From Trueperaceae bacterium (lineage in GTDB: Bacteria; Deinococcota; Deinococci; Deinococcales; Trueperaceae): 64,000 bases of DNA. Within the stretch, counting starts at the first letter, position 1, and the number at the start of each line of letters is the position of its first letter. The notes under the pieces are model-generated. The model saw only the letters and a program-made list of their open reading frames with translations. It did not search any database and was not told the DNA's origin. A program made the position numbers and the translations under genes. Location of the stretch: positions 1,632,001 to 1,696,000 of the forward strand of contig OZ243927.1 of NCBI GenBank assembly GCA_965213925.1, in the 5' to 3' direction. Below, in pieces: positions 16,139-33,476 of this stretch.

Positions 16139-16360
16139 TAGCATTTGTAGGTATCTTTGATGCACCTGTCAAAGATACCCGAGCGGAAAAGAGCCTTTAG
16201 CATAGGTGAAGCACATAGTGCTTTGAGCTTCGCTCTGACCTGTGAGGTAGCATCTTTGAATCTATGGGCGTTGACGTAATGTGCCGTGTACACCGGCTAA
16301 AGGCTTCTCTGCGAGTACCAACAAACGCTCTCAGTGTGTCAATAACGGATGCAAATGCTA
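16139..16360 (+). ncRNA. Candidate structured RNA or cis-regulatory leader, family not recognised
   Basis: Nested stems TAGCATTTG/CAAATGCTA, GGTATCTTTGA/TCAAAGATACC, GAGCG/CGCTC, AGCCTTTAGC/GCTAAAGGCT, GTGAAGC/GCTTCGC. Confidence 0.45.
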
Positions 16361-16398
16361 GCTAAAGGGGTATATCTAGGGCATTCGAAAGGAGAACG

Positions 16399-17250
16399 AT
16401 GCAGTTTTCTATGGTGAATGGTGAGATCGTCCAGGCGTCCAAAGCGCAGCTTCACGTGAGCGACTTGGCGCTTTTGCGCGGCTACGGGCTTTTCGACTTC
16501 TTCCGCATTAAAGAGGGCGTGCCCCTCTTTTTGGAGGACTATTTAGCGCGGTTTTACCGCTCGGCGGAAAAGCTCGGCCTAGACGTGCCTCTTTCGAAAG
16601 ATGAACTAGAAAGCCTCATCTTCAAACTGCTAGACGCAAACGGCGAGCGTGATTCGAACGTGCGGCTGCTCCTCACGGGCGGTTACTCGGACGACGGTTT
16701 CACCCCGGCCGAGCCGAACCTAGTCGCGCTGCAACACGCGCGCAAAGACTACGACCCCAAACTCTTCGAAGAGGGCGCGTCGCTTATTACACACGAATAC
16801 GTGCGCGACCTCCCCGAGGTCAAGTCCATCAACTACGCCACCGCCGTGCGGCTCATTCCCAACATGAAGCGGGCGAACGCGGTTGAGGTGCTCTATCACG
16901 ACGACGGCAATGTTGCAGAAACCTCGCGCGCGAATATCTTTATTGTCGATCAAGAAGGTACGCTCATCACACCCGCCGAAGGCATCCTAGAAGGCATCAC
17001 GCGCAAGCGCATCTTAGAGTTAGCGGAGGATATGGCGGTGGGGGTGCGGGCGGTGAGTTTAGACGAGGTGATGGGGGCTCGAGAGGTCTTTATCACCAGC
17101 ACGACTAAAGGGGCAATGCCTATCTCTGAAATCGACGGACAAACGATTGGCGAGGGTCGCGCGGGCGAAGTGACAAAGCGGCTCGGTGAGAGGTTCGGTG
17201 AGCGGGTTGAGAGGTACGTTCGGGCTCATCAGCTGGCTGCGACAAGCTAG
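16399..17250 (+). CDS. Class IV PLP-dependent aminotransferase (D-amino-acid/branched-chain/PabC family)
   Basis: DLALLRGYGLFDF, EVKSINY, ETSRANIF, ILEGITR, EVFITSTTKG. Confidence 0.92.
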   Translation: MQFSMVNGEIVQASKAQLHVSDLALLRGYGLFDFFRIKEGVPLFLEDYLARFYRSAEKLGLDVPLSKDELESLIFKLLDANGERDSNVRLLLTGGYSDDGFTPAEPNLVALQHARKDYDPKLFEEGASLITHEYVRDLPEVKSINYATAVRLIPNMKRANAVEVLYHDDGNVAETSRANIFIVDQEGTLITPAEGILEGITRKRILELAEDMAVGVRAVSLDEVMGAREVFITSTTKGAMPISEIDGQTIGEGRAGEVTKRLGERFGERVERYVRAHQLAATS

Positions 17251-17321
17251 GTTAAGCTTAGGTCGCTATCCATCCCCAATGCTCTCACTGAGTAGGGTGT
17301 TAGCCGTGAAGGGGTACAGAA

Positions 17322-17348
17322 AGAGGCTCGAGCTATTCTCGAGCCTCT
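17322..17348. terminator. Hairpin terminator downstream of the tRNA, convergent with the aminotransferase
   Basis: AGAGGCTCGAG/CTCGAGCCTCT perfect stem. Confidence 0.65.
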
Positions 17349-17355
17349 AAAGAGT

Positions 17356-17432
17356 TGGTAGCGATGGAGAGACTTGAACTCTCGACCTCACGATTATGAG
17401 TCGTGCGCTCTAACCAGCTGAGCTACATCGCC
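17356..17432 (-). tRNA. tRNA with CAT anticodon (elongator Met; Ile2 not excluded), intact with encoded CCA
   Basis: GGCGATGTAGCTCAGCTGGTTAGAGCGCACGACTCATAATCGTGAGGTCGAGAGTTCAAGTCTCTCCATCGCTACCA folds as a cloverleaf. Confidence 0.96.
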
Positions 17433-17500
17433 GTGCACCACGCGCTTTATCCGTTTCGTGTAACCACTTGCCCTCACGACTAGCGGGCTCACGATTGTCG

Positions 17501-17530
17501 AGTATAGCCCATAACGCCAGCAGTAGACAA
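17501..17530 (-). promoter_or_regulatory. Sigma70-type promoter of the tRNA, also duplicated at 49847-49876
   Basis: TTGTCT-N18-TATACT on the minus strand, about 70 nt upstream of the tRNA. Confidence 0.65.
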
Positions 17531-17851
17531 GTGGTTTTGCATCATCCACCGCTCAGCAGGTCAGCGCCCTTGGTTTGTTTGGTTTGTATTTCCAACTGAC
17601 CCGTTCAAGCCTCACCACCGGGGCACTTGCTCGGCTCCCTGGCGGTCGCTTGAGGTCGCAAGTACCCCGCTTCCGCTCCCGCTGGTCGCTCCAGTCGCTC
17701 CTTAGTCCATTAGGGTAGGGGTACTAGCCTAAGCCATGCTTGTTCACTCCGGCACACGAATATATTCGTGTGCCCTTTTTGCGTCCCTCACGAACTTTCC
17801 GACTTTACAAGACCCTGCCAATTGGGGTAGGCTCTAGGCCCAGGAGGAACC

Positions 17852-18160
17852 ATGCGGCGACGTTATCTTCGTCTTCACCCCAAGGTCAGAGCGCGTCGGG
17901 TAGGAGCGGTGTCTACTCCCAGACAGCCTACGCTACTCACCCCTTCGCCTGCGCCAATCTCCGCGCATTCAAGGACGTCTACTACTCGGAACAAGTACCT
18001 CAAAGCCTATGTGTCTCGCACCATGCACGAGCGCTTTCACGCCGAAGCCGCACGTCAGAACAAGACTATGAGCGCCTTGCTCCAGGAGCTAGTTGGCGAT
18101 TATCTAACCCAAATTGAGGTCCAAGAGCGCTGGTCAGCCCTGCGTAGCGCACCCAGATAG
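17852..18160 (+). CDS. Ribbon-helix-helix (CopG/Arc-like) DNA-binding protein
   Basis: KYLKAYVSRTMHERFHAEAARQNKTMSALLQELVGDYL; AGGAGG RBS. Confidence 0.7.
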   Translation: MRRRYLRLHPKVRARRVGAVSTPRQPTLLTPSPAPISAHSRTSTTRNKYLKAYVSRTMHERFHAEAARQNKTMSALLQELVGDYLTQIEVQERWSALRSAPR

Positions 18161-18221
18161 GTCCTACCGGCCCCATACAGCCTCGACATAGCAGGACGAC
18201 ATTACGAAAGGATCTAACATC

Positions 18222-18560
18222 GTGAATGACGCTCGAGAAATCAAGCGGCTGCAACGCCAAATTCTCGACTTGCAGGGAGACTTGAGTAGGCTGAAAACTA
18301 CCGTTGACACCCAGAAGTACCGCACCGAGAGCGACTTCGACACTCAGACTTACCTGATCAGCAAGCTGGAGCAGGACCTAAAGTGGTTGAAGCGTAAAGG
18401 TGATAGCTCCAGCCAACTATCTTTGGCTACCTCCTCTCGAGAGGTTAGGGGCATTTTTCAACACTTACCGGACCCTTTGCCCTTCTTCGCCGGAGTTCTG
18501 CTCGGCGTTGTGATTGCGAGCCTGCTTTTCATATTCGACATCGCTGCACGCGCCGCCTGA
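18222..18560 (+). CDS. Hypothetical coiled-coil protein with a C-terminal TM helix
   Basis: Heptad-like N-terminus; FFAGVLLGVVIASLLFIF. Confidence 0.55.
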   Translation: MNDAREIKRLQRQILDLQGDLSRLKTTVDTQKYRTESDFDTQTYLISKLEQDLKWLKRKGDSSSQLSLATSSREVRGIFQHLPDPLPFFAGVLLGVVIASLLFIFDIAARAA

Positions 18561-18740
18561 GTTGCGCTTTGCCTGCCCGGATCGAGATGATACCCCCGCT
18601 AGGACTCAAGCCGTGAGAGATGGGCGCACGGCTTCCAAGAACCTTGAGCCCATTCGCCAAAAGAAAAGCAAGTCCAGTGAGCAACAAGAAGAGTAGGTAG
18701 TTTGAGTGTTACGCGCGATGAGTGGTGGAGCCTACGACAT

Positions 18741-19604
18741 CTACGAGATCAGTTTGGAAGGGTGTGCCGCCAGGTCATTAGCGATCTGGCGGGCGATGAT
18801 ATGCGCGTCCTCATAGTCAAGCGTTTCGATCCCGTCGTCACGCAGCAGGTGGAGCAGTTCGTCCGTCTCGCCCGCTTCTACTAGATTGGAGGGATAGTAG
18901 CCAAGCACGGCGAACTTGGCGTCTTGGTAGACGGTATCCAAGCCCGAGGCGCTCCGCACGTCCCGCGCGGTCATGCGGTAGCTCTGCACCGTCCCGGAAG
19001 TTTTCTCGGTGCCCGTAAAGGGGATGAGCTGGTAGTAGTGCATAACGTCGTTCTGATACGCGAAGTCGATTTTAGGTGCAGGGACAGGCGGCTTGACGTC
19101 CTGCTTGACCTCAGGACGCTCGAAGAGCCCAGCCTGTCTAAAGACGCTGCTAACCTGCTTGCGCATGGCTTGGCGCGTGACGCGCAGTCTCTTCGTGCCT
19201 TCTTCAGGGACCGCGACGAACTGGTGAAACAGCTTCTCCAAGGTTTCCTCTGGGTTGGAGGTCAAGGCGGAGCGCGGCTCGCTGAGTTGGATGTTGTTGT
19301 GATAAAAAGCTCTCAGTCTATGAAGCCCTGAAGGGGTCAGGATGCCTTCTGGAGAGACTCCCTCTTCGATAAAACTATTCAACTGCTTATGGTCGAACGC
19401 ATATCTGAGTTTCGTTAGCGCGTGCCTCACGAAATGCCCATCCCAGTTGCTGAGCGCCTTAGCCCTGCTGTCATCGCCGAAGCTCGGCAGGTAACGCAAC
19501 CCTTGAAACCTCGTCTCAGGGCACACGAGAATAACTCCCACGTTGACAAACTCTTCGCGGAGCATGTTGGGTATGTAGCGGACTACTGCGTATAGTGCAC
19601 GCAT
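18741..19604 (-). CDS. DUF3037-domain protein (usual partner of HipA-like kinases)
   Basis: YAVVRYIPNMLREEFVNVGVILVCP; IQLSEPR; KIDFAYQN; start set at the ATG at 19604. Confidence 0.82.
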   Translation of the reverse strand: MRALYAVVRYIPNMLREEFVNVGVILVCPETRFQGLRYLPSFGDDSRAKALSNWDGHFVRHALTKLRYAFDHKQLNSFIEEGVSPEGILTPSGLHRLRAFYHNNIQLSEPRSALTSNPEETLEKLFHQFVAVPEEGTKRLRVTRQAMRKQVSSVFRQAGLFERPEVKQDVKPPVPAPKIDFAYQNDVMHYYQLIPFTGTEKTSGTVQSYRMTARDVRSASGLDTVYQDAKFAVLGYYPSNLVEAGETDELLHLLRDDGIETLDYEDAHIIARQIANDLAAHPSKLIS

Positions 19605-19736
19605 CCTCTTCACAACCACTATGTTACCTTTGGTGTCCTTTTGCAACCTCCTCGCCAGGTGTTCAGGCAGTGCCCTGACCCTCTGAGATAGGTAGTTTAG
19701 CAGGGCTTCTGCGTTGGGAAACCGCGCCGATTCAGC

Positions 19737-20201
19737 TCATACAACATCGAATGATAGGTTTATCTTGAGTGTTACCGTCTCTGTTTGCTTTGCGAGACCC
19801 TCATCGGGCTCGGGCATTTCTTGGTGATTCTCTTCCAATGGGGGACCTTCGTTTTCGGCTGCATCAAGCTCTTCCAGAGCAGCGGAGATGTTGGCTTCGG
19901 TGGCTTTGCCATACACGATAACCCCGAACCTTATGACATCGGTGATGTCTTGCATGGAGTTGTAGTCGGGGCGTCTCGTGGCGTAGGCGCTCACAGCGGC
20001 GATCATGGTGACTGTAAGCTGACGCGCGTCGAGCGGTACGAGTCCAGGTGTGTTACTGTTCAAGGTCCAGCCCGCGAGGTTGAGGGCATAGTCTGCTGCA
20101 AAGGCTTCTAGCGGCTCTAAGTCCATGAGTTCCACAACTTGTCTAGCATTCTGAGTACGTTCCATATTTATATTCCCTTTCCAAAAGCTGATCTCAGACA
20201 A
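19737..20201 (-). CDS. Hypothetical protein
   Basis: 154-aa ORF with no recognised motif. Confidence 0.5.
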   Translation of the reverse strand: MSEISFWKGNINMERTQNARQVVELMDLEPLEAFAADYALNLAGWTLNSNTPGLVPLDARQLTVTMIAAVSAYATRRPDYNSMQDITDVIRFGVIVYGKATEANISAALEELDAAENEGPPLEENHQEMPEPDEGLAKQTETVTLKINLSFDVV

Positions 20202-20468
20202 CTCCAGTCATCCTTGGGTGCGGCTTTTTCTGGCTGTATTTCGCTGCATCTCCGCAAGTGCACACGGCGGGGCTACATAACCTCTTTTCCGGGCTTCGAC
20301 CTTATCCAACCTACATCTTCAAGTGTTTCGAAGCCGGTCATGGCGCTTGTGTTTGCTAGAGGCACGTTCGTGTAGGTCGAGCCAAACCTGTTTACGCTAT
20401 GCTTCCCTGGCTGCTCCTTCGTCGGCGCACGCGAGGTGGCTGTATAGGTTCTATGGAGCCGTGCCCTC

Positions 20469-21725
20469 TTACGCAGCCTGTCGCACCACAGCCCGCTCCC
20501 GCATCGCTAAAAGCCACTCTATCTCCGTTCGCCGAGCCCCCGAGTCCGGTTCTCCGCGCTGATACGCCAACGCCCAGTCAGCCCGCTCGACGGCTTCGTG
20601 GTAGCGCCCCTCAGCGAGCAGCAGCGCGACCTGCGCTTTGACTTGTTCCCTCTCGTCGCCGTTCAGTTCCGCCCCTCGCCCGAAGTGTACCTGCGCGGTT
20701 TCTTGATCACCGAGGTGGAAGGCGTAGAAATAGGCGGCTTCAAAGTGGAGCGTCGGGTTGAACACGGGGCTGATTGCTTGGGCGGCGGTAAGCGCCTTAT
20801 CTAAGGCATCCTTTGCAGCCTGCACATCTCCGCTGTCCAGGGCGTAGAAGTACCCCGAGATGAGCCCAGGAAAGGCTTCTGCAGGGTTGCGTTCCGGGTC
20901 GAACTGGTCGTAGGGCGCAAGCACACGCAGGTCCCAATCGCGCGGTCTGACAGAACCAAAATAGAGACCCTGGTAGCGGTAGCTCTGCTGTAACCTCTCC
21001 ACGAACGCTGGGTCACGTAAGTTGAGGAGTTGGAGACCATCGAAGAGGAAGTTGCCTACCTTTAGCGGCGCGAGATTACCTAACGCCTGCCACGCCGCGA
21101 ATGTGCCGATGGTCGTCAGCAGAAGCGCAGTGTACAGCTCCCAAGCGTAGAGTTCGTAGGGCTCGAAAGCAGCCAAACCGAGCGCCCGGTGAGCCCCGAA
21201 CGCGGTGACTGCCAAGACGAGTGAGGCGAGCGGACCTGCCAAGAGGATGAGAGCATACCTGCGGCGGAAGTGCGGGTCGTCGGGGTTCTCGGTGTGGAGG
21301 TGAGCCGCGCCGCTCGGCTTGACTCCCGCCCAGTTGTACTTGACCCTGACGCCGCGTTTGTGTGGCTCAATGTGAAGAGGTCCCACCCATATGTACAGCG
21401 TCTTGAAGCCGACCAAGCGCCCCGCTAGGGCGTGTCCCAACTCGTGCACGAAGGTCAGCAGCCATAAGAGGGGCACAGCGAGCAGAAAGGCAACGGCGAC
21501 CCCTTGGCTGTTCAATGCGCCCAAATAGTCGGTGAAAGGCGCGAAGTCGAGGTCGAGGAAGCCGCCAAGCATCCCCAAGAACAAAAAGAGCGCCAAGAGG
21601 ATAAGAACTACGCGCCCACGACCATCTTGTGCCGCGCTTGGTGGTCGGGGTTGCGGCGCGGGCACGTTCTCAGACCCCGTAGGAGTAGGTAAGTCGGTCG
21701 TTTGCGCTTTGCGAGACTGGTTCAT
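20469..21725 (-). CDS. M50-family (site-2 protease) membrane metallopeptidase with TPR-like C-terminus
   Basis: HELGH, LAGPLAS, NLAP...FDG; several TM helices. Confidence 0.85.
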   Translation of the reverse strand: MNQSRKAQTTDLPTPTGSENVPAPQPRPPSAAQDGRGRVVLILLALFLFLGMLGGFLDLDFAPFTDYLGALNSQGVAVAFLLAVPLLWLLTFVHELGHALAGRLVGFKTLYIWVGPLHIEPHKRGVRVKYNWAGVKPSGAAHLHTENPDDPHFRRRYALILLAGPLASLVLAVTAFGAHRALGLAAFEPYELYAWELYTALLLTTIGTFAAWQALGNLAPLKVGNFLFDGLQLLNLRDPAFVERLQQSYRYQGLYFGSVRPRDWDLRVLAPYDQFDPERNPAEAFPGLISGYFYALDSGDVQAAKDALDKALTAAQAISPVFNPTLHFEAAYFYAFHLGDQETAQVHFGRGAELNGDEREQVKAQVALLLAEGRYHEAVERADWALAYQRGEPDSGARRTEIEWLLAMRERAVVRQAA

Positions 21726-22461
21726 AGAGATTCCCGCTTAACTCTAGGGCAGCCGAGAGGTTTAAGCGCGTGAAACGGTCACGCCAACTTGCCTCTTCCC
21801 CTGTGAGAAATCGGGCTTGTTAGTTTCTAAGCGCTGCTCAAAAGTACCCCCCTCCCCTCGTAGTTCACGAAGCGGCAGGGGTTTAGCGCCGTGCGCCCGC
21901 TGGCTGCGTTTTATCTCGAGAAACCCTCTCGTTCCCCTACAGACGTTGCCCCGTAACCTCTTTTTGCGCAGGAGTGCAGAACCGCCCCCCTCCGGGTAGG
22001 TCTAAATCGTAAGCCGTTTTGGGCAAGCGCTTTGTCTAAACCAGCCTCGACGTGTCCCCCTGGGGTGATGAGTTTTGTACCGGAGATGCCGACTAATTTC
22101 TCCCCTTGTCTGCCCTTACTTGATCGTCTAAATTGCCCTGAACCGGACCACGCTTGCCCCCACCGCGAGCTTAAACCATGCCCACGCTGTCTTGGCAGCC
22201 GTGCTCTGCCACTGCCTCCACTCATTACGAGTGAAGGAGTTTTACATGAACCATACAGCCCGCTTTTACCGCCACCTCTTCACGCCCATTCAGTCTCTGT
22301 CCTGCCGGATGCTCACGCCTGTTACTCCGTTTAAGAACGCGCAGGAAGCGACAACTCTTCCCATAGGTGGATCACCTTGCCAGCCAGCGCCAACAAGTGA
22401 ATTTCACACCCCTACCGCGCCCCCTGGCTTACACTCAGTTTGGACTATTACCGAGGCAACA

Positions 22462-23520
22462 ATGCACCAAGAATCTCGCCGCCGCACGATCTACCTCATC
22501 GCCATCTCGATTGGGCTACCCACTTTGCTCGTCGTCTGGTGGCTTCAGCACGCTATAGACCCCTTCGTGCGCGTGGCTCACCCCCTGCTCATGGGTTATC
22601 TCGCCTGGGCTGTCATCGCCCTGAAGCGCGAGCGCGTGCCCCTAAAGGTCATCGAACAAGCGACCTTCTGGGTCAACGTAGCCTTCTGGTATAGCAACTT
22701 CGCCTACAGCCTCATCAGCGGTCACACCTTTACGGTGGGCTGGGCTGAGGTCATGAGCGTCACCATGCTCAACTTCTTTATCCTGGCTGTCCTGTCGCAC
22801 TTGGTCTTCTCGACGCGCTTTGGAGGACGGGTCAACTTGGGGCTCCTGGGTCTCTCCGCCCTCATCGGCGTGGGCGGGCTCCTGCCGGACGTGATGCAGG
22901 GGCAGCACCAACAGGAACTCACCTGGCTCATCCACTTCGAACTCGCCTTTGCGGTGCTCATCGGTTTCATCTACGTCGTCGCCAAGAGCAAAGACGATTA
23001 CACCGAAGCCGCACTCCACGCCCAAAACCTGCACACGATGGCGTATGAGGACGCGCTCACGGGGCTACCCAACCGCCGCCGGGTCGAGGGCGAGCTGGAC
23101 TGGCAAATCGAGATCAGCGGGCGCTATGGACGCCCCCTGTCGCTCATCAGCTTCGACCTGGACAAGTTCAAGAGCATCAACGACACGTTAGGTCATGCGG
23201 TGGGCGACGAGGTGCTCACCTCGGTGGCTAGGCTCGTCAAGCCCCTGCTGCGAGCGAGTGACACCTTGGGGCGTTGGGGCGGGGAGGAGTTCGTCATCGT
23301 CGTGCCGGAGTCAGACCTAGAACACGCCTCTGCCTTTGCCGAGCGCATCCGCACTGCCATCCAGCACGCCCAGCATCCGCACGGGCTTGGCGTTACCGCG
23401 AGCTTTGGGGTGGTGACGTGGGAGCCAGGGATGAGTGCTCAGGACCTCTTGGAAGTGGCGGACAGGCGGCTCTACCAAGCTAAGGCGGGTGGGAGAAACC
23501 GAGTGGCAGTGGGTGCTTGA
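22462..23520 (+). CDS. Membrane diguanylate cyclase (about 6 TM + GGDEF)
   Basis: DALTGLPNRR, DLDKFKSIND, RASD I-site, GGEEF; an alternative in-frame start with RBS lies at 22247. Confidence 0.92.
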   Translation: MHQESRRRTIYLIAISIGLPTLLVVWWLQHAIDPFVRVAHPLLMGYLAWAVIALKRERVPLKVIEQATFWVNVAFWYSNFAYSLISGHTFTVGWAEVMSVTMLNFFILAVLSHLVFSTRFGGRVNLGLLGLSALIGVGGLLPDVMQGQHQQELTWLIHFELAFAVLIGFIYVVAKSKDDYTEAALHAQNLHTMAYEDALTGLPNRRRVEGELDWQIEISGRYGRPLSLISFDLDKFKSINDTLGHAVGDEVLTSVARLVKPLLRASDTLGRWGGEEFVIVVPESDLEHASAFAERIRTAIQHAQHPHGLGVTASFGVVTWEPGMSAQDLLEVADRRLYQAKAGGRNRVAVGA

Positions 23521-24106
23521 CGCGCCCCCTGTGCGACGTCAACTTGCCCCGGTGAGGACCTCATCACAGGCGGGCTTACGACCCCGCTTTTCCCCGTCCT
23601 CGCCGGGAGAAGTCACATAGCGCACCTTGATCCCCGGTTTGCGCAGCAAACCCGCTACGCAGTAGCGGAACACGTCGGGCAAGGTTCCAATCTCGAGACC
23701 AGTCGGAGTTTGTAAGCCCTGTTTAGGGGCTGTTACCTCTCCACAACCCGCTGTACTGAATCCTGCCGGGAGTGACGCCTTCGGCGAATAGGCTTCGCCT
23801 ATTCCATCAATTGACCGGGAAGAGTGGGCTCAACCCTAGCCTAAACCAAACACCCCAATCGGTAGATCAACTCGATCATGCCGGGAGGGAGGAAGCAGGT
23901 ATATAAGCCCTAGCTGGTGGGGTAATAGCAGGATGAAACTCGCCCCCCTTGGAGTTCTTAACCTCTACCCCTGGGGAGTCTATAAACCCCAGCCCCCTCT
24001 ACAGGCATGGTTCTTACCCCCTGAAGAGCGTGAGGTCGAGAAGAACCGACAGGGACGAGGAAAATTGCCTTTTAGTTGAGGCTTGCCGACTTACAACCCG
24101 CGAAGT

Positions 24107-25702
24107 TTACTCTATGAGACCCCCTTCAAGTTCGGTGTGAATGTCCATCTGAGCTGCGGTGTCTTTAACGACCTGCTTAATCTTAGATTCCCACTTGGTT
24201 ATGCTTTTCGTCTTGTAGCTCACCGTGAAGCCATCGAATTGGTAGAGCGTGACTTTGAAAACCTTTTTATTTGGCTCGGCGAGCTGATAAACCGGCGCAA
24301 GTAGTCTCAACTCGGTCTGTTGGGCTCTTCTGGCGAGCACCTGCTTTGCGCTCTTACGTGTGTTGTCACCTAGATATCTGGATTCGATACCGAAGCGCTC
24401 TGCTAGGTTTGACGAGCAAAGCTCCTGCATAATCTTCTCGATCTCTTCTTCGCGAGCATCGAAGAGGTCTTGAATGATCGGAATCGCCTCGAATTTTTCG
24501 TAAAGACTATCGGGTTGACCAGAAGACAACAAGGCGCGTTTGACGTTGTGCTTCTCAGCACCAAAGACTAGCGCGTAGATAGCGGTTTTCAAATCAGGTT
24601 TGATAGTCTGGAGGTCTACTCCAAGCTCGTCCGCTAGATAAGCCCAGGCTGAACCCTGCGTTTCTAGCAGGACTTGAAGGTCCGTGACGCCCCACTTCTT
24701 CGCTACGATAGCAAGCTGAGCCGATTTCAGGTCGTACTCGTACCAGCCACGTGTGAGTTGCCGCCGAACATCTTTCCTAATACTTAAAAGGGAGGGATAA
24801 CTTCCGTACAGCCGCGCTGTCTTCTCTACCGTGTGGATCATCGGCTTCGGGCACCCTAGGATGAAGAGGAGTTGCCCCCAAGCCTGATGCTGGGAGCGTT
24901 CAGTCCTACCCATACAGTTTGCTAGGTGTTGAATTGCAGTCTCGCGGTTCTTCTTCACGATGTCAGAGAACACTTGGATATCGAGCCCGTTCTGGTACTC
25001 GACAATCATCTCGCTATCTGACTTGAGCTTTTCAGACACAATTTCCCAATCTGAGCTAAAGCACGGCATAGGCTTTACAGAGCTGTAAGGGGCAGACAAA
25101 TCTTCTAAATTGGTAAGTTTCTGAGCTGGGAAGAGTGATTGAAGATGGCTGATGGTAGAGGATGAGTCTGCTATGTCGACATGCAAGGGTATCGACGCTG
25201 CCTGCTCGAAAACCGCTCCGCGCCAGTCTGCTTGAATCTGGCGCGTGACCTTCTTGCCGGTCGAGAGGACTACCTCATCCTCTTTGCCCTCTTTAAGGTC
25301 CCGCCACATCAGCTCGCGTAAAGCCTCTGCCTCTGGACCGAGCCCTGTGTTTTCAACCTCACGCGCTTTACCTTGCTTGTACCTTTCATGTGTATGGTCA
25401 GTATACTCGAAGCCCGGCACAACATCCCTTTTGAAAGCCTCTAAGAATCTATAGCCCACGTAGTTTGAATTCGCCTTTTTGCCCTCAAACGAAGCGAGCT
25501 TCTCCCTGGATATCACGATATTGCCCAGCTCATCTTCATCGCCTATTTCATCGCTATCTTTTTCTTCTTTATTGTCAAACTTAGACGGAAAAAGCAAATA
25601 CATCATTAGATGCCAGTATGCCGGGTTCTTCTCCAGCCCTGAATAGGCTTGCACAACTGCTTCTCTAAATCTTCTGCTGCCCGTAGTCCTCGCGTAGCTC
25701 AT
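24107..25702 (-). CDS. Divergent family-A (PolA/T7-like) nucleotide polymerase-like protein
   Basis: TARLYGSYPSLLSIRKDVR (cf. TGRLSSxxPNLQNIP), motif A YDLKSAQL, motif B KTAIYALVFG, AQQTE, motif C QFDGF. Confidence 0.65.
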   Translation of the reverse strand: MSYARTTGSRRFREAVVQAYSGLEKNPAYWHLMMYLLFPSKFDNKEEKDSDEIGDEDELGNIVISREKLASFEGKKANSNYVGYRFLEAFKRDVVPGFEYTDHTHERYKQGKAREVENTGLGPEAEALRELMWRDLKEGKEDEVVLSTGKKVTRQIQADWRGAVFEQAASIPLHVDIADSSSTISHLQSLFPAQKLTNLEDLSAPYSSVKPMPCFSSDWEIVSEKLKSDSEMIVEYQNGLDIQVFSDIVKKNRETAIQHLANCMGRTERSQHQAWGQLLFILGCPKPMIHTVEKTARLYGSYPSLLSIRKDVRRQLTRGWYEYDLKSAQLAIVAKKWGVTDLQVLLETQGSAWAYLADELGVDLQTIKPDLKTAIYALVFGAEKHNVKRALLSSGQPDSLYEKFEAIPIIQDLFDAREEEIEKIMQELCSSNLAERFGIESRYLGDNTRKSAKQVLARRAQQTELRLLAPVYQLAEPNKKVFKVTLYQFDGFTVSYKTKSITKWESKIKQVVKDTAAQMDIHTELEGGLIE

Positions 25703-25840
25703 TGTAAGTTCTCCGCTGTCGTAGATTCATTGACCTCAAAGCCCCACATCACCACAAAGCCCCAGACTCAGCAGTTAAAAACTTCTTGCGAGAGGGAATT
25801 CTCTATACCAAAGCCCACCCATGCGTTAAACTTCTCAAAG

Positions 25841-26122
25841 ATGTCAGCTCAACTCACGACCAACCACGCTAAGATCATCAACGAACTCTGGCAAGCCGCC
25901 GTCAACCTACGCGGCTCAATAGAACCTGCCGACTACAAGCGCTACGTCCTGACGATCATCTTCCTGCGCTTCTTGTCACTGGGCTACGAGCGCAGGTGTG
26001 AGGCGCTTCAAGCGCTGACTGACGACCCCGAGAGCGAGTACCACACGACCGCCCCGGAGGTCGCTGAGAGCATCTTAGAAAACGAGACATTCCTCACGCG
26101 ACATAACTTTTCTCGTGTGTAA
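25841..26122 (+). pseudogene. hsdM: Type I R-M HsdM N-terminal remnant
   Basis: NELWQAAVNLRGSIEPADYKRYVLTIIFLRFLS is the HsdM N-terminal signature; stops after about 93 aa. Confidence 0.85.
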
Positions 26123-26185
26123 CAATACGCTTATTTAACCGGGCTGAAGGGCGTTCTTAGAGGTCTTTGCACCGGCAGTGGAGTT

Positions 26186-29113
26186 TTGACCTTGGCTCAT
26201 GAATTTCAACCAGGCATGATCATTCGGGCGCGGGGCAGACTGTGGCGCGTAGACAGCGTTGACGCTTCGACCGTGACCGGCACGAGCCTCGACAGCCCCG
26301 ACGCTAGATCGCGCCGCTTTTTCGTCCCCTTTGAAGGGCGCGGCATCACGGTTGCGCAGATGGACCTTCCGCCAGCGGTGGAGGGCGACGCGGTCCTGCA
26401 CGACCTCTTCTTACGCGCGACGCGCATGACGATGATGCACGGCACCGCGCCCCTCGCGAGCCTCCAGCGCTCGCGCGTGATCCCCACGAACTACCAGCTT
26501 GTCCCGGTCATGATGGCGCTCGACATGCCCCGCGTGCGTATCCTGATCGCTGATGACGTAGGGCTCGGCAAAACCGTCGAGGCTGGGCTTATCACCTCGG
26601 AACTTCTCGCGCGTAAGCAAGCTGAGCGCGTGCTCGTTCTCACCCCTGCGAACCTCAAGGATCAGTGGCGCGAAGCCTTTTCACACTTTTTCCACCTCAA
26701 TCTCGAGTCGCTAAGCACCCCTGAGATTCGTAAGCTCGGCAGGCGGCTACCGCCCGGCGCGAACCCCTGGTCGCACTTCCCCTTCGTGGCGGCGAGCATC
26801 GACTACGCCAAGCAGGACAGCGTCAAGAACCTCATCTTGAGCCAGAGCTGGGATTTGGTCATCGTCGATGAGGCGCACGGTTCGGCTGCGCCTACGGCGG
26901 GTGCGAGAGGTTCAGGTAACAAAGACCGCTACGAGTTCGTTCAGGACCTCGCTCGCCGCTGCCGCCATCTGGTCCTTGCCACCGCGACCCCGCACAATGG
27001 CTACACCGCCTCGTTCGCGAGCCTTTTGCGGCTCCTCGACGAGACGTATTCCCCGGAGGGTCGTCTCGAACAACCCCTGCAACTCGTGGACGGCGACCTG
27101 CACGAGCCGATCATCCGCCGCCGCCGCGCCGAGCGTCACGTGATTCAGCGCCGCCGCCAAGACGTGCAGAACTGGTTTGTCAAAGAGAATAAGCGCTCGC
27201 CCTTCCCGGAGCGCAACAGCCGCGAGGTGTTTATCGAGCCGAGCCGCCCCGAGCTTGAGGTCTACCACGCCTTCCAGAGCTACCAGCGCTTCATCTTCGA
27301 GGGTAAGGAGAGCAAAGACGTGCACGTGCTGGCTCGCTGGATGGTCATGCACTTTTTGCGCCGCGCGACAAGCTCACCGAACGCGCTCAAGGTGTCTTTG
27401 CGCAAGCGCACCGAGAAGCTGAAGCGCAAACTCGAACGCCCGGACGAGGGCGACGAAAACGAGCGAGTCAGCAGCCCAGTCGAGCAGGCGCTCAAGGGCG
27501 CGACCCTCGATGCGGGCGACACCGACCTCTTCGCAGAGGAAGAACTCGACGACAAGCTCGACAAGCTGAGCATCTTGCAGCGCTCGGAGATAAGGGCGGA
27601 GATAGGCTTTTTAGAGGGCATCTTAGACGCCGTGAACCGCTGGCGACCCGGCTCGGACACGAAGCTCAAAAAGCTCAAGAGCCTCCTGAACGACTACAGC
27701 GAGTTGGGGCGCTATCCCCGCACCATCATCTTCACCCGCTACCTCGACACCATGACCTATTTAGCGAGCGAACTCGCCAAAGAGAAGGTTTTCGACATCT
27801 TCACGGTGGACGGGTCGCTGAGCGACAAAGCGCGCGCCGAGCGCATCCGCGACTTTGGACGCGCCGAGCGCGGCTTGCTGATTGCAACCGACGCGATCAG
27901 CGAAGGGCTCAACTTGCAGTTCGTCGCCAACCAGCTCGTCCACTACGAGCTTCCCTGGAACCCGAACCGCTTGGAGCAGCGCAACGGGCGGGTGGACCGC
28001 TTCAAGCAGCCCGAGGCGGAGGTGCGCATCCGCACCCTGATCAACGAACGCTCCTTCGACCTGGTGGTGTTTCGCAAGCTCATCGGCAAGGCGCAGCGTA
28101 TCCGCGAGGCTTACGGCTTTTTGCCCCCCTACTTCAGCGATGAGAAGTATTCCGAAGACCTCATCGGCGAGTTGATCGACGAGAACCTCACCGAACAGCG
28201 TTTCTTGCAGCCCGGTCTCTTCAACCAAGCGTCTCCCGAAGAGATTACCGAAGAGGAGCGGCTCGCCGCCGACAAGATGCGAGAAGAGTCGTTCTACGGT
28301 CACGCGACCTTTAACCTCCCGGACGTCGAGGAGCGCCTCCAGGCGTCGCAAGACGTCATCGGCAGCCCGAAAGAGGTCGAGCAGCTTGTCGTGCAGGCAC
28401 TTAGATACCTCGACTGGCGCGTGGACGAGCGGCGCGGCGTCTACCACGTCCAGCGCGGCGGTGCTGAGCCTATCGCCGGAGTCCCTGACGACTTGGGGCT
28501 CATCACCTTCGACGCGGACGTCGCGGTTATGAACCCAGACGTCAATCACCTAGACATCGCTCACCCCGTTGTGACGCGGCTGCTGACCTACATCAGGCGC
28601 ATGAGCTACGGCAGCCTCAAAGACGCACGCACGGCGGTCGTGACGCGGCTACTGCCTGCGGGCACCCCGGCGCACGCCGTGTTCCACACCCGCGCCCGCT
28701 ACATAGTCGGGCGAAACGGTGGAGGAGACGGCAAGCAGAGCAGTAGGCAAGGCAGCAAGCAACTCGTCGAGGCGCTCGTACCCGTCGGCGTGGACCTCAT
28801 GACGGGCGAGGTTGCGCCCCACGCGCTCACCCTCCAGCTTTTGACGGCGGAGCCGCGCCCTTCGACCTTTACAGGGGCGTCCGTGCGGACGTTCATCGAC
28901 AAGGCGCTCCACCTCCCCAAGCTGCGCGACATCGTCTCGGCGGCGGTGCAGCGCAAAGGCGAGGAACTGCGCGAGGAGCGCAGAAAGTTGCGTGCCAAAC
29001 TCGAGGAAACCTACCCCAGCCAGTCCACCTGGTTAGAGGGCATCGACGAGATTCACCCAGCCGCCCACGATATCCTGGCGCTGAGCGTCGTCGTCCCGGC
29101 GAGGCGGAGCTGA
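26186..29113 (+). CDS. SNF2-family helicase (DrmD-like)
   Basis: LIADDVGLGKT, DEAH, TATPHNG, SEGLNLQ, LPWNPNRLEQRNGRVDR. Confidence 0.9.
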   Translation: MTLAHEFQPGMIIRARGRLWRVDSVDASTVTGTSLDSPDARSRRFFVPFEGRGITVAQMDLPPAVEGDAVLHDLFLRATRMTMMHGTAPLASLQRSRVIPTNYQLVPVMMALDMPRVRILIADDVGLGKTVEAGLITSELLARKQAERVLVLTPANLKDQWREAFSHFFHLNLESLSTPEIRKLGRRLPPGANPWSHFPFVAASIDYAKQDSVKNLILSQSWDLVIVDEAHGSAAPTAGARGSGNKDRYEFVQDLARRCRHLVLATATPHNGYTASFASLLRLLDETYSPEGRLEQPLQLVDGDLHEPIIRRRRAERHVIQRRRQDVQNWFVKENKRSPFPERNSREVFIEPSRPELEVYHAFQSYQRFIFEGKESKDVHVLARWMVMHFLRRATSSPNALKVSLRKRTEKLKRKLERPDEGDENERVSSPVEQALKGATLDAGDTDLFAEEELDDKLDKLSILQRSEIRAEIGFLEGILDAVNRWRPGSDTKLKKLKSLLNDYSELGRYPRTIIFTRYLDTMTYLASELAKEKVFDIFTVDGSLSDKARAERIRDFGRAERGLLIATDAISEGLNLQFVANQLVHYELPWNPNRLEQRNGRVDRFKQPEAEVRIRTLINERSFDLVVFRKLIGKAQRIREAYGFLPPYFSDEKYSEDLIGELIDENLTEQRFLQPGLFNQASPEEITEEERLAADKMREESFYGHATFNLPDVEERLQASQDVIGSPKEVEQLVVQALRYLDWRVDERRGVYHVQRGGAEPIAGVPDDLGLITFDADVAVMNPDVNHLDIAHPVVTRLLTYIRRMSYGSLKDARTAVVTRLLPAGTPAHAVFHTRARYIVGRNGGGDGKQSSRQGSKQLVEALVPVGVDLMTGEVAPHALTLQLLTAEPRPSTFTGASVRTFIDKALHLPKLRDIVSAAVQRKGEELREERRKLRAKLEETYPSQSTWLEGIDEIHPAAHDILALSVVVPARRS

Positions 29114-32100
29114 TGGCGCACGCGCTCAACGCCATCTCTGTATCGGGCAACCTGCTCAGCAACGAGTTTTTGCACACCAGCACGCAGCCCGGCGGGAAGT
29201 TCCAGGCGTTCGACCCGAGCACCTTCGACCCGAGCTGGAAGCGCGAGGCGGACTTCGAGGCGGCGCTGAGCCGCGCCTGGGAAGACCTCAAGGACCGCTT
29301 CGACGAGATTTACCCCAGCCTGCCCTACATGGACCTCCCGGCGGTACGGAGGGGGTGGACGCTGCCCCTCTTGCGGACGCTCGGCTTCGCCCCGGCGTAT
29401 CAAAAAGCGCGGCTCAAGCTCCCGCGTTTGAGCGAAACCTTCCCCATCAGCCACCGTGGATGGGGGACCGACGACGCCCCCGTCATGCACCTGCTCTCCC
29501 CTCAGAGCGACTTAGACAGCAAGCCCGCCGAACGCGGCGCGAAGAGCCCGCAGATGATGGTGCAGACCTTCCTCAACCAGGACAGCACGCAGTCGTGGGG
29601 CATCTTGTCGAACGGCGCGGTGCTGAGGCTCCTCCGGGTCTATCACCACACGAGCCAGGCGGGTTACGTCCAGTTCGACCTCGTACAGCTCTTCTTGACC
29701 CGCGACTACGACGAATTCAGGAGCCTCTACCGCCTCGCACACGCCAGCCGCTTCGTGCCGCGCGGCACGACCTTAGTCGAGGCGAAAGCTGAGTCGGAGG
29801 ACAAGTTAGAGGATGAGGGCGAGGACGAAAACGCGCCCGCCGAAGCGAAACGCCTCCCGGTCTGGCTCGAGGTCTGCTACGAGCACGCCCGCAGCGAGGG
29901 CAGCCGAGCTGAGGCGAGCCTCCGCAAAAACGTCATGGAAGCGCTTATCGTGTTGGGCAACGGTCTCCTAACCCCAGGGCTGCGCCAGCGCCTAATCGAG
30001 CGCCCCGCCGACATGGATATCTACTACCGCCAGCTCCTCCGGGTTGTATACCGCTGCATCTTCCTGCTCTTCGCCGAGCAGCGCGGGCTCATCCGCACCG
30101 ACTCGCCCTTCGCTGAGGTCTACCACGACGAATACAGCCTCACCGCGCTGCGCAACCTCGCCGAGGAGCAGCGCCTAGTGCGCGACCACGGGTCTGATTT
30201 GTGGGAGCGGCTGCTCCTCACCTTCGAGCTGGCTCGCGTCGGCAACGAAGACCTGGGCGTTCAAGCCTTTAACGGCGACCTCTTCGACGCCGAAAACCTC
30301 TACCTCGTCTACGGCAACGTGTTCGACCCGGCGCTGCGCAACACCCGCGACGACCTCCCCCGGCTCACGAACCAAGAGACGCTGCGCTTCATCGAATGCT
30401 TAGGCTTCACCACCGTCAACGGCACCTTGGAGCGCATCAACTACCGCGACCTCAAAGTTGAAGAGATCGGGCACATCTACGAAGGGCTCCTCGACTTCGC
30501 GCCGCACCTCGCCGCGCAAGACCTGATGTCGGAGAGCGGTCCCGTCGCCAAGGGCGCGTTCTACTTAGACGAGCGCAGCACGAGTCGCAAGACGAGCGGC
30601 TCCTACTACACCCCGAAAGAGCTGGTGCAAGAGATCATCAGCCGAGCACTGCTACCCGTCATCGACGAGCGCCTAGCGGCGGCGGACAATACCTTACAGG
30701 CGCAAGAGGAGGCGCTCCTCAGCATCAAAGTCCTCGACCCCGCCTGCGGCAGCGGCGCGTTTCTCATCGCCGCCAACGACGCGCTCGCCAAGCGCCTCGC
30801 CGATTTGCGCTGGCAAGCGGCGCGCGAAGAAGCGCTTAGGAGTGCCGCCGACACCTTTCTTTTCGAGGGGCGCGTAGGCGCAAGCGCCGCCAACCCCTCG
30901 CAGACCCACGAGCGGTACTACGAAGAGGTCCAGAAAGCCAAGCGCGACGTGCTCGCGAGCTGCATCTACGGCGTAGACCTCAACGACATGGCAGTCGAAC
31001 TCGCCAAGGTGAGCCTCTGGATAGACGCCGCCAGCAGCGGCAAACCCCTCAACTTCCTAGACCACCGCATCCGCTGCGGCAACTCCCTACTCGGTGCGCC
31101 GCTGAACTTTATCTACCTGGGCATCAACCCGGACGCCTACAAGGGACGCGGCGACGCTGACAAAGACACCCTAGCGGAGGTCCGCAAGGTCTTCAGCCCC
31201 AAACAGTACGCGGAGCGGCACAAGAGGTTAGACGAAGAGGGGGCGCTCTTCGACCTCAAGATTCAGCTCCCCGACTTAGGCGCGGTGCGCGAGGACTCCG
31301 TGGAGGGCGTGCGGGAAAAAGAGGAACGCTACGAGCGCCTACGCGCCCAAGACGCCCTCGCCAAGTGGCAACTCGTCGCCGACTACTGGACGAGCGCCTT
31401 TTTCTACCCCGTGAAGCCCAACACCGGGACCATCCCCAACCAGAAGAGCCTCAACCTCATCGTCCAGGCGCTAGAAGAGCGCACCACCGACCAGCTCAAA
31501 CAGCTCACGCCCCTCTCCCCGCAGGTGCTCGGGCACATTGCCGCTCTAAAGCACCAGTACAACTTCTTCCACTACTGGTTAGAATTCCCCGAAGCGTTCT
31601 TTGACAGCGCAGGCAACCTCAAGGCGCAGCGCGGCTTCGATGTGATTGTGGGCAACCCGCCCTGGGAAGTTGTACAGCCCGAAGAGAAGAAGTGGTTTGC
31701 GGGACGCAATGAGGAGATAGCCGAAGCGTCGGGGGCGAAGCGGAAGAAACTCATTAAAAAGCTAGAAACCGAAGACCTCGACCTTTACGAAAAGTGGAAC
31801 GAGCACGCTACAGAGACTCACGCGACTGCGAACTTCGTCAAGGCGTCCGGGCGTTACCCCACGTTGAATACTGGCAAGGTCAACCTGTATGCGGTATTCG
31901 CGGCGGGGAATAAAGACCTGACGAGTTCTACCGGACGCACTGGCATCATCGTGCCGTCGGGCATTGCCACCGACAACACGACTAAAGACCTCTTCAGGGA
32001 CTTCGTAGAATCTCAGAGCCTCGTCTCTTTAGACGACTTCGAGAACCGCGAAAAGCTCTTCGTGGGCGTTGACAGCCGCATGAAGTTCTGCCTCCTGGTC

Positions 32101-33396
32101 CTCACCGCCCCCGGTTCTGGTCCCGAAGAGGCGCAGTTCAGCTTTTTCAACACCAACGTGAAGCACCTCAGCGACCTGAGTCGCCACTTTACCCTCTCCG
32201 CCGAAGACTTTAAGCGCATCAATCCCAACACGCTAACCTGCCCGACCTTTCGAACTGGCAGAGACGCCGAGATTACGCTGAAGATGTACAAGCGAGCGGG
32301 CGTGTTTATAGACGAGAACGATGAGGAGAACGGCAACCCCTGGGGCGCGTCATTTATGCAAATGTTCAACATGACGAGCGACTCGAGCCTCTTCCGCACC
32401 AGGGAGGAACTCGAGGCTGAGGGGCTTACGCTGACAGGCAACAGGTTTGTTCGAGGTGAAGAGGTCTATCTGCCGCTCTACGAAGGCAAGATGGCTCACA
32501 TCTATGACCATCACTTTGCCTTTTTCGATTCTTATGAAGGTGAGTACCAGTCTTACGATGAGAAGAATGCTACCGCACCTCTCACCACGCAATTTTACGT
32601 CCATCACAACGAGGTAAAAGAGCGTGTATCTCGTCGTAAGTGGGAGCGAAAGTGGTTCTTCGGGGTACGGAGAGTAACGCGCAGTAATGACACCAGAACT
32701 GTTATCGGTTCGTTTGTTCCGTATTGTGCAATTACATATGGTCTTTACGTACTTTTTTCGCCCGTATCGTTATTGAACTACATTGCTCTCGTAGCTAACT
32801 TAAACTCTATAACATTCGACTACCACGCTCGTAATGCACTTAGTCAGCCTTCGCTAACTTACGGTGTGCTGTATCAGCTACCTAATGTCAAAATTACCAA
32901 GTATTCCAAAGAAAACCTCCACTTCATCCTCCCCCGCGTGCTCGAACTCACCTACACCGCCTGGGACATCAAGCCCTTCGCCGACGACCTCTGGCGCGAA
33001 GCGGGCGAGGAGGTGCGGGGACTGTTTCGGGAGGCGTGGCGGGCGAACGCGGCGGCGTCGGGTGGAGGTCATGCGACCCAGCCGCCAGCGTGGGCAGAGG
33101 TTGACGCGGAAGTTGATGCGGCGGGCTGCCCGTTAGCGCCTTTTACCTGGAACGAGGCGAGACGCGCCGAGTTGCGCTCAGAGCTGGACGCGCTTTACGC
33201 GCACCTGTATGGGCTGACACGCGAGGAGCTGGCGTGGATTTTGGACCCGCGCGACATCGACCCGGCAACGCCGTCGGTGTCCTTTCCGGGCTTGCGGCGG
33301 AGCGAGGAGAAGCGGTACGGGGAGTACCGGACGAAGCGGCTGGTGCTTGAGTATTTCGATAGGTTGGCGGAGGCTCGAGAGGGCGTAGAGGTATAA
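29113..33396 (+). CDS. Large N6-adenine DNA methyltransferase (Eco57I/type IIG-like, DrmMI-like)
   Basis: [39 protein letters not shown]; overlaps the SNF2 stop codon (TGATG). Confidence 0.92.
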
Positions 33397-33476
33397 GCTG
33401 CGGAGCGCGGCTATCCCTAAATTCGCCCTTGATAGAGGCTATAATGGACCAAACGAAGCAAATAAGGAGTCGTGCT

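Follow-up and report, generated by a model that had tools for sequence, protein, structure and literature searches.

What does a polymerase gene of foreign base composition do among the defence genes of a bacterial genome? The question is raised by a window of 64,000 nucleotides (nt) from a Trueperaceae bacterium (assembly GCA_965213925.1, contig OZ243927.1, positions 1,632,001 to 1,696,000 of the forward strand), within which all coordinates below are counted. An open reading frame (ORF) on its minus strand, at 24107-25702, codes for a protein of 531 amino acids (aa), called P0001 here. A sequence-only reading had taken it for a stand-alone, highly divergent family-A polymerase-like protein, perhaps primase-like, RNA-synthesising or primer-independent, that acts in replication or defence. 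From sequence and structure model we infer that P0001 is probably an active, template-dependent nucleotide polymerase. Its likeliest role, to which we assign a probability of roughly one half, is the replication or priming of the mobile element that carries it. The main interest lies in a candidate single-protein primase-polymerase that may drive the replication of defence islands.

Searched as a single sequence, P0001 is matched by no model of Pfam, NCBIfam, PHROG or PADLOC and by no PDB sequence; the two weak rows obtained with PHROGs (E 0.034 and 0.19) are noise, and the Pfam family DNA_pol_A (PF00476) gives nothing at E<=0.1, its gathering threshold of 34.3 bits not being reached. The relationship to polymerases emerges from the alignment of the family. 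Alignment A1 contains 15 sequences, P0001 and 14 homologues of 25-40% identity collected by a word-indexed search. Compared with PDB sequences, the A1 profile matches human Pol nu (E 0.0043) and Pol theta (E 0.19-0.9) with the motif-A aspartate and motif B in register, D324 of P0001 falling on the motif-A Asp of Pol theta. When A1 members are scanned singly, 4 of the 15 have sub-threshold matches to PF00476 (best E 0.0035, at E<=1), the sole Pfam family matched by more than one of them; so do 3 of 23 further relatives (best E 3.9e-5, 23.2 bits against the cut-off of 34.3).

The structure model carries the assignment further. The AlphaFold2 model of P0001 built on A1 has a mean predicted local distance difference test score (pLDDT) of 81 and a predicted template modelling score (pTM) of 0.79, low confidence being confined to residues 45-59 and 175-225. 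A Foldseek search of PDB with this model returned 154 matches at E<=0.001, of which the top 50 are family-A DNA polymerases only (E about 1e-7, probability 1.00). In VIA-align the model superposes on Pol theta (Z 19.6, root mean square deviation (rmsd) 3.4, 303 residues aligned), Klenow fragment 1kfd (Z 19.0, rmsd 3.8, 307 aligned), Pol nu (Z 19.0), Taq (Z 18.9) and T7 DNA polymerase (Z 18.3), and the aligned stretch runs from residues 153-173 to residue 531. Residues from about 155 to 531 are thus modelled as a complete thumb-palm-fingers family-A polymerase fold of about 375 aa. The sequence-only reading had seen a polymerase part in the C-terminal 240 aa or so; its location was right and its extent too small, as the fold includes the thumb. 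What had appeared as an unrecognised N-terminal half is therefore the thumb (residues about 155-290) plus a separate domain of about 150 aa. Two structural comparisons had also been proposed: that with Klenow reveals a right-hand palm, and that with T7 RNA polymerase was answered by family-A DNA polymerases, no single-subunit RNA polymerase being present among the 50 listed rows of either Foldseek or VIA-align. The gene and its parts are as follows.

24107-25702, minus strand: intact ORF of P0001, 531 aa, N-terminal domain followed by a compact family-A-type polymerase core, stop codon included (ORF listing, model, structure matches)
25711-25714, minus strand: GGAG ribosome-binding site, 8 nt 5' of the ATG (sequence reading)
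25253-25702, minus strand: N-terminal domain, residues 1-150, with family-wide R13, R114 and G149, weakly winged-helix-like (alignment A2, model, structural search)
24833-25243, minus strand: thumb, residues about 154-290, helical, with a P0001-specific low-confidence insertion of 49 aa at residues 171-219 (model, VIA-align, insert states)
24110-24832, minus strand: palm and fingers, residues 291-531; R297 and R313, both invariant, stand before motif A (alignments, model, VIA-align)
24713-24733, minus strand: motif A, DLKSAQL, residues 324-330, catalytic D324 at nt 24731-24733 and Q329 at what we take to be the Klenow E710 steric-gate position (sequence, Pol nu/theta register, conservation)
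24560-24601, minus strand: motif B or O-helix, K368-x3-K372-x3-Y376-x3-F380-G381 (sequence, profile match, conservation)
24311-24322, minus strand: Q461-x2-E464 motif, AQxxEL in the family (alignments)
24227-24241, minus strand: motif C, QFDGF, residues 488-492, catalytic D490 at nt 24233-24235, Q-H-D-G in the majority of the family (sequence, conservation)
23800-25900, no strand assigned: patch of low GC content around the gene, 0.43-0.55 compared with 0.60-0.67 to the left and right (GC profile)

The frame is uninterrupted over its 531 codons, with exactly the ends previously read for it. Motifs A, B and C stand in that order at the letters which had been picked out by eye, motif B as KTAIYALVFG at residues 372-381, and they are genuine family-A motifs, well above chance look-alikes. 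Their conservation was followed in 194 distinct members aligned on the A1 hidden Markov model (HMM), namely the 150 best representatives from the database search described below, A1 itself and proteins from the fetched loci. D324, R297, K372, Y376 and W353 are invariant in this set (194/194), and nearly all members keep K368 (191), F or Y at 380 (191), G381 (193), E464 (191) and Q461 (181). D490 is kept in 189, the exceptions being four gaps in truncated sequences and one Glu, so that both catalytic aspartates are retained as had been claimed; the residues that bind metal and triphosphate are thus intact. In A1 alone D324, K368, K372, Y376 and G381 are invariant, and Q461, E464, Y487, D490 and G491 nearly so. 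The two aspartates would be juxtaposed in space, judging from their strand and hairpin positions in the model (E320-325; E482-488/E491-496) and from the global superposition; R297 sits between the modelled strands E289-291 and E298-300. Motif C is mostly Q-H-D-G, the residue before Asp being His in 118 members and Phe in 61. Position 329, placed by the motif-A alignment to Pol nu and Pol theta and presumably equivalent to E710 in Klenow numbering, holds Gln in 163 members, His in 30 and Gly in one. Glu occurs in none of the 194, which extends to these members what had been noticed in P0001 as a Gln in place of the steric-gate Glu. We take Y376 to occupy the position of Klenow F762, as in T7 DNA polymerase, and the Q461-x2-E464 motif, by motif reading, to stand for the RxxxNxxxQG helix of Pol I.

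The N-terminal domain is conserved throughout the family as well, with R13 in 163, R114 in 188 and G149 in 191 of the 194 members. Modelled separately on 32 sequences (alignment A2), it has a mixed alpha/beta structure with pLDDT 85. In a structural search of all against representatives winged-helix DNA-binding domains make up the greater part of the 50 rows listed, those of the MarR family, of OmpR-type regulators, of the initiator proteins Pi, RepE and RepA of plasmids, and of ORC2; the modelled domain is possibly DNA-binding. None of these 50 matches is an exonuclease of DnaQ/RNase H type, and A2 contains no exonuclease motifs, in agreement with the earlier impression that P0001 has none. 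The median length of the 194 members is 477 aa, which P0001 exceeds because of two private insertions. One, at residues 44-56 of the N-terminal domain, is an acidic run, EEKDSDEIGDEDE; the other is the 49-aa thumb insertion at residues 171-219, predicted with low confidence, at a position presumably comparable to the thioredoxin-binding loop of T7 DNA polymerase. Both occur in none of the 14 first-found homologues.

P0001 belongs to a large family. The A1 profile matches 1764 clusters (representatives at 50% identity) at E<=1e-3 and 1096 at E<=1e-30; the best 150 of the 1764 representatives, 391-627 aa long, are nearly all matched from end to end. In the ESM Atlas the 30 nearest clusters are all named "hypothetical protein" and have no Pfam domain in common, the commonest labelled taxon is Uroviricota, and the nearest named cluster, at 0.76, is DNA_pol_A, which serves as a lead only. 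Searched with P0001 by tblastn, 50,697 deposited phage records gave no match and 72,556 plasmids gave one, a "hypothetical protein" of a Deinococcus peraridilitoris megaplasmid. The gene was found in none of 40 relatives, two of the same genus included; in a sample of 364 genomes of the phylum 26 carry a match, concentrated in one family (24/125). In its own genome the gene is single-copy, and it is AT-richer than its surroundings, as had been remarked: GC content is 0.49-0.51 over 24-26 kb, compared with about 0.60-0.64 in the flanks, and the trough from about 23.8 to about 25.9 kb reaches a minimum of 0.425 at 200-nt resolution. The family is large, unannotated and horizontally mobile, and we count the horizontal acquisition of the window gene as shown.

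Several members of the family deserve mention in their own right. Decayed copies in the same phylum (G074, G062, G082, G086, G100) have in-frame TAG stops, split genes or only N-terminal fragments, which fits a gene dispensable to the host. Among 23 longer relatives the N-terminal or C-terminal extensions have no recognisable domain, with one exception: P0022 (602 aa) ends in a GIY-YIG nuclease domain that exceeds the Pfam cut-off with 25.1 bits and represents a fusion with a homing endonuclease or else an added nuclease that functions. A metagenome contig of 77 kb (Ga0209949_1000042) carries two divergent polymerase copies about 10 kb apart (L036 and L038). As for the window itself, the spacer 3' of the polymerase gene (23521-24106, 586 bp) is unique in the genome and has only weak short repeats; it was considered as a copy of an insertion sequence or of a miniature inverted repeat transposable element and rejected as such, since the sequence occurs once. 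No Rfam family reaches its gathering score near the gene.

The polymerase gene lies inside an integrated element, the ends of which are marked by these features.

17372-18500, no strand assigned: left copy of a direct repeat of about 1.1 kb, which starts inside tRNA-Met (17356-17432, minus strand) (repeat comparison)
49718-50500, no strand assigned: right copy of the direct repeat, in 100% identical blocks, with a tRNA-like fragment, a weak match, at 49708-49778 (repeat comparison)
48714-49598, minus strand: tyrosine integrase of the island (Phage_integrase, E 1.8e-31)

Positions 17372-17650 equal 49718-49996 at 100%, and more identical blocks follow to about 18500 and 50500, respectively. Of the window stretch 16000-34000, the genomes of the same genus share only about 16388-17545, which is an aminotransferase gene and the tRNA-Met region. 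The repeats at tRNA-Met, the tyrosine integrase and the strain-specific stretch therefore place the polymerase gene in an integrated island of about 32.3 kb, a setting that, like the large family, had escaped the sequence-only reading. The direct repeat greatly exceeds a usual attachment site in length and contains small ORFs, an indication that related elements integrated in tandem or one after another.

The cargo of the island is rich in genes of defence type. On the tRNA-Met side of the polymerase gene there are a DUF3037/PDC-M66B-like gene (18744-19646; PDC-M66B E 1e-14), an M50-like peptidase and a GGDEF protein. On the other side a defence operon (26186-39652) includes a DrmD-like SNF2 helicase (E 2.9e-109), a DrmMI-like/type IIG methylase of 1427 aa and a DruE-like helicase of 1938 aa with an MZB/DUF1998 domain (best match Druantia DruE, E 2.9e-109); it looks like a hybrid of DISARM and Druantia and is not textbook DISARM. 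Two UvrD/GajB-like helicases (39649-41745 and 42158-44245), a NERD protein (45119-46867) and, beside the integrase, a PDC-M21A/B pair (46974-48175; PADLOC candidate systems, E 1e-46 and 5e-61) complete the list. Directly 5' of the polymerase gene, an ORF on the plus strand (25649-26122) contains a truncated HsdM, of which the N-terminal 46 residues only are left (match about 25880-26017). This fragment, placed between the polymerase gene and the defence operon, probably remains from a type I restriction-modification (RM) system that a later insertion displaced. Joint acquisition of polymerase and HsdM was considered and rejected, the HsdM being only marginally like that beside a relative of the polymerase in locus L092 (34% over 35 aa).

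Neighbourhoods of homologous genes were examined in 8 species-representative genomes, 4 viral contigs, 32 metagenome contigs (many of them short) and 17 loci of the phylum sample; in the latter, 127 ORFs within four ORFs on either side of the polymerase were scanned. Clustering of neighbour ORFs in the first 45 loci disclosed no conserved partner gene: the widest cluster is found in 7 loci, which all belong to a single set of related phage-like contigs. Recombinases recur most regularly. By Pfam annotation, a tyrosine or serine recombinase is present in the fetched flank of 6 of the 8 genome loci; in the same-phylum loci one is found within four ORFs in 10 of 17, and in 7 it directly adjoins the polymerase gene, L077 and L079 among these 7 being near-duplicates. 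Clear RM genes accompany 4 of the 8 genome loci (MmeI-type, Eco57I-type, type III, AlwI with two D12 methylases, Mrr), one has a Dnd-like set of DUF4007 and phosphoadenosine phosphosulfate reductase, and one is a prophage with tape measure, amidase and terminase genes. The defence-type domains of the same-phylum loci comprise GmrSD, McrBC, MrcB_N, MmeI, type I/III RM, DUF499-HEPN, AAA_15/21, SNF2-NOV_C and HerA. Genes for DUF927 or D5_N helicases occur in 3 of these 17 loci, and in one the helicase gene is directly adjacent to the polymerase gene (L088). DUF927 helicases are of the type of Cch in the staphylococcal cassette chromosome (SCC) and of the Rep proteins of Staphylococcus aureus pathogenicity islands (SaPI) (PMC7581432). 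Those of the same-phylum loci lie at 9556-11370 of L084 and 7636-10674 of L088, one of them being the 1013-aa protein that adjoins the polymerase gene.

Smaller elements are met as well. A minimal one recurs in four loci (L007, L024, L028, L029) and consists of a 155-aa ORF, EndoVII, the polymerase, an ORF of about 90 aa and a large serine recombinase; another (L014) has a helix-turn-helix (HTH) protein, the polymerase and an integrase. The ORFs of about 90 aa found 3' of the polymerase in some loci are mutually dissimilar and have no Pfam match. In phage-like contigs the polymerase stands beside the large terminase (L002, L011, L012, L021, L025, L042) or beside tail genes (L009, L020). On the viral contig L011 (5290-9741) it is placed between the large terminase and a Mu-like head protease, the expected site of the portal gene; none of the ORFs scanned there was recognisable as a portal, and the protease ORF spans half of its profile.

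How would such a gene serve its element? In the proposed mechanism the tRNA-Met island, or elsewhere the prophage or small integrative element, would excise as a circle, on which the polymerase would start and/or extend DNA synthesis. Priming de novo is conceivable, as with the polymerase CCPol of SCCmec, which together with MP, a small protein with the oligonucleotide/oligosaccharide-binding (OB) fold, makes DNA primers de novo (PMC7581432; PMC10061031). The N-terminal domain would hold the template or origin and so take the part played by MP for CCPol, by the promoter-binding domain in T7 RNA polymerase and by the helicase in those transposon/virus polymerases (TV-Pols, compared below) that are linked to D5-type helicases. 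A narrower version makes P0001 a self-sufficient, origin-specific primase-polymerase, whose N-terminal domain recognises a site of the excised island and whose family-A active site starts chains, possibly with ribonucleotides, and extends them; this is a tentative proposal that may well prove too specific.

The habitual place beside recombinases, together with DUF927/D5 helicases in 3 of 17 loci, favours replication of the element over defence. It is rather unlikely that P0001 is itself an anti-phage component, alone or with neighbouring systems, which might synthesise nucleic acid that is aberrant or acts as a decoy, use up nucleotides or sense the ends of phage DNA, its location in the island then being a case of defence-island clustering. 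The setting of the gene, between the PDC-M66B-like and GGDEF genes and the DrmD/DrmMI/DruE-like system, would suit such a component, as would the RM genes at 4 of 8 genome loci, the moron-like variable sites in phage contigs (the copy in L002 is opposite in orientation to its neighbours) and the patchy distribution with some copies decayed. The defence reading is weakened because no partner is conserved, the recombinase is retained where the defence cargo differs, and minimal elements consist of only regulator, polymerase and recombinase, without defence genes (L014; L007/L024/L028/L029). The recombinase as most regular neighbour, adjacent in 7 of 17 loci, with a cargo that varies by locus, is the pattern expected of an island backbone gene; PADLOC has no match to P0001, and a literature search found no published anti-phage role of a PolA-like protein. 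Still more doubtful is the proposal of RNA or mixed products, made by an RNA-primer-forming or transcribing single-subunit polymerase. All 50 listed VIA-align rows and the top 50 of Foldseek are DNA polymerases, and Y376 is presumably as in T7 DNA polymerase. Judged from the sequence, the Gln/His substitution at the gate (163 and 30 of 194) is the only point that would favour RNA synthesis; Gln and His are still bulky, however, and nothing in the sequence decides sugar selectivity. By comparison, the strongly dNTP-preferring CCPol keeps its Glu (E174), and T7-type RNA polymerases, which have an N-terminal DNA-binding domain, are part of the same superfamily (PMC7581432).

Two further explanations were weighed. 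In the first, P0001 would be a functionless remnant of an older element whose type I RM system, now the HsdM fragment, and recombinase were lost. The truncated HsdM_N ORF does adjoin the gene, the integrase is distant, P0001 has two lineage-specific low-confidence insertions (residues 44-56 and 171-219) and some relatives are pseudogenes; a frame of 531 codons that is open, has a good ribosome-binding site and keeps all family-invariant residues nevertheless makes this account quite improbable. In the other, which we regard as the least credible of all, the gene is cargo or domesticated and provides the host with a repair or translesion polymerase, like the actinobacterial APEX or PolA2. An exonuclease-less family-A enzyme alongside the host's normal polymerases, with the repair enzymes Pol theta and Pol nu as best structural and sequence matches, would agree with it. 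Against it stand the failure to find the gene in any of the 40 relatives and its presence in only 26 of 364 phylum genomes, always in mobile contexts, its foreign GC content and the lack of any link to repair genes. Moreover, P0001 fits none of the 19 PolA clusters (PMC10201439) or PolA1-3 (PMC12926913), and nothing like it is described among them in the available portions of these two surveys.

Replication or priming of the carrying element, which we prefer, has to contend with several observations. The island contains no replicative-type helicase and no recognisable origin. No MP-like or single-stranded DNA-binding (SSB) protein-like partner is encoded 3' of the polymerase gene, where the same-strand ORFs of at least 25 aa are two short and unlikely ones. 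The gene is 23 kb from the island integrase and embedded among defence genes, and in the same-phylum loci defence-type domains are as frequent as recombinases (11/17). The winged-helix likeness of the N-terminal domain is a lead and not a finding, because its best Z of 5.5 is below the tool's own noise guide. Within the active site, the motif-C Glu of Pol I is replaced by Gly491 in 190 of 194 members. All of these count against our preference.

Family-A polymerases are textbook examples of primer-dependent enzymes, and CCPol-MP of SCCmec is, to our knowledge, the only shown exception on the DNA side. The P0001 family comprises well over 1000 sequence clusters, bears the label "hypothetical" wherever it was looked up and lacks a curated model; it is met beside the recombinases of islands with restriction, DISARM/Druantia-like and other defence systems. 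Should P0001 replicate or prime its island, this would account for the persistence and spread of defence islands after excision and would make it possible to study, in a simple system of one protein, how a Pol I-type active site initiates chains de novo. Should it moreover be a self-sufficient primase-polymerase, a single gene by an integrase would suffice for defence islands, small elements and some prophages, and alongside DnaG and the archaeo-eukaryotic primases (AEP) there would be a third, widespread kind of primase, acting as a general engine of defence-island mobility. The Gln or His at the sugar-selecting position gives a direct, testable handle on the choice between dNTP and NTP. The family merits a curated profile, so that surveys of defence islands no longer score the polymerase as unknown cargo.

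Among known systems, functional analogues are offered by piPolB of pipolins and by the AEP primase-polymerases of P4-like islands, where a replication enzyme likewise stands beside an integrase and a variable, often defence-related cargo. Their folds are unrelated to that of P0001, piPolB being a family-B polymerase. With Pol I (Klenow, Taq, Bst), T7 DNA polymerase, Pol theta and Pol nu, P0001 shares the fold (Z 17-19.6), motifs A, B and C in order, the Asp pair and the Lys, Tyr and Gly of the O-helix. It differs from these canonical enzymes in an identity of only about 10-14% and no match to PF00476 at the curated threshold, in the lack of any recognisable 3'-5' or 5'-3' exonuclease domain, even vestigial, in the much shorter core of about 375 aa, in motif C (HDG or FDG in place of HDE) and in the steric gate. 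The family also resides on mobile elements and is patchily distributed.

CCPol-MP (Bebel et al. 2020, eLife 9:e55478; Rice 2023) comes closer. CCPol too belongs to the A family, lacks an exonuclease and has a shortened thumb; its gene is part of an integrative element with site-specific recombinases, which in SCCmec are serine recombinases (PMC7581432), and CCPol-MP has been proposed to replicate the excised element. CCPol needs the separate MP to prime and shares an operon with the Cch2 helicase, whereas the P0001 family has no conserved small partner or helicase and has instead an N-terminal domain, which CCPol lacks. CCPol is annotated by NCBI as a PolA domain and P0001 matches no curated model; CCPol keeps the steric-gate Glu (E174) where the P0001 family has Gln or His (PMC7581432). 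According to the same papers, CCPol of SCCmec is the only member of the TV-Pol kin that has been tested biochemically (PMC7581432; PMC10061031).

TV-Pols, the transposon/virus polymerase family of Iyer, Abhiman and Aravind (2008, Biol Direct 3:39; PMC2579912), are described there as proteins of 400-600 aa that lack a nuclease and have the minimal superfamily-A core of thumb, palm and fingers. They show linkage to D5-type helicases or, alternatively, an N-terminal globular domain, and were predicted to be primase-polymerases of replicative elements. The primase-like role suggested by the sequence-only reading agrees with this prediction and with the DNA-primase activity demonstrated for the related CCPol-MP (PMC7581432). 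The P0001 family fits the subset with the N-terminal domain, and its membership is likely. Common to both are the size, the stand-alone minimal core with two catalytic aspartates and no nuclease, an Arg that never varies, in the hairpin preceding motif A, and a basic-x3-Lys motif in the first fingers helix. Both are also found beside lambda-type integrases, resolvases or transposases in RM-rich hot spots, sometimes near D5-type helicases (3/17 loci here), and both occur in Planctomycetota, Bacteroidota and phages.

A sequence comparison was made with one named host of a TV-Pol only, Microcystis phage Ma-LMM01. When the 65 Ma-LMM01 ORFs of at least 250 aa were compared with A1 by hhalign, MAP_030 was best (E 0.0058 over 250 columns, the next best covering at most 58); it is a "hypothetical protein" of 506 aa adjoining two transposase genes. 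With alignment A3, built on the six database homologues of MAP_030, a profile of the 194 sequences gives E 1.5e-4 and a probability of 52% over 289 columns. The alignments are collinear, with two Arg before motif A, the motif-A Asp with His at the gate position, the Lys and Gly of motif B, the Q..E pair and an identical QHDG.

The link is a soft one in several respects, which tell against the role drawn from it too. The HMM of A1 picked up no match in the Ma-LMM01 genome at E<=10, A1 itself aligns to A3 with E 0.005 and a probability of 7%, and the A3 profile finds no polymerase in PDB (one spurious row, E 1.6). MAP_030 is presumed to be the TV-Pol of the 2008 paper, whose text names no ORF. 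TV-Pols have RxxxK where the P0001 family has KxxxK (K368 in 191/194); their conserved fingers Asp has no equivalent at >=85% conservation in the P0001 family; and their N-terminal domain is all-helical by prediction, that of P0001 being modelled as alpha/beta. According to the 2008 paper TV-Pols are never fused to nucleases, which the single GIY-YIG fusion in P0022 contradicts. Taken as a whole, the P0001 family is a very divergent new member of a known, experimentally almost untouched kind of polymerase, the interpretation of which was anticipated in print in 2008, and its Gln/His gate is one feature that separates it from CCPol and from all canonical DNA polymerases.

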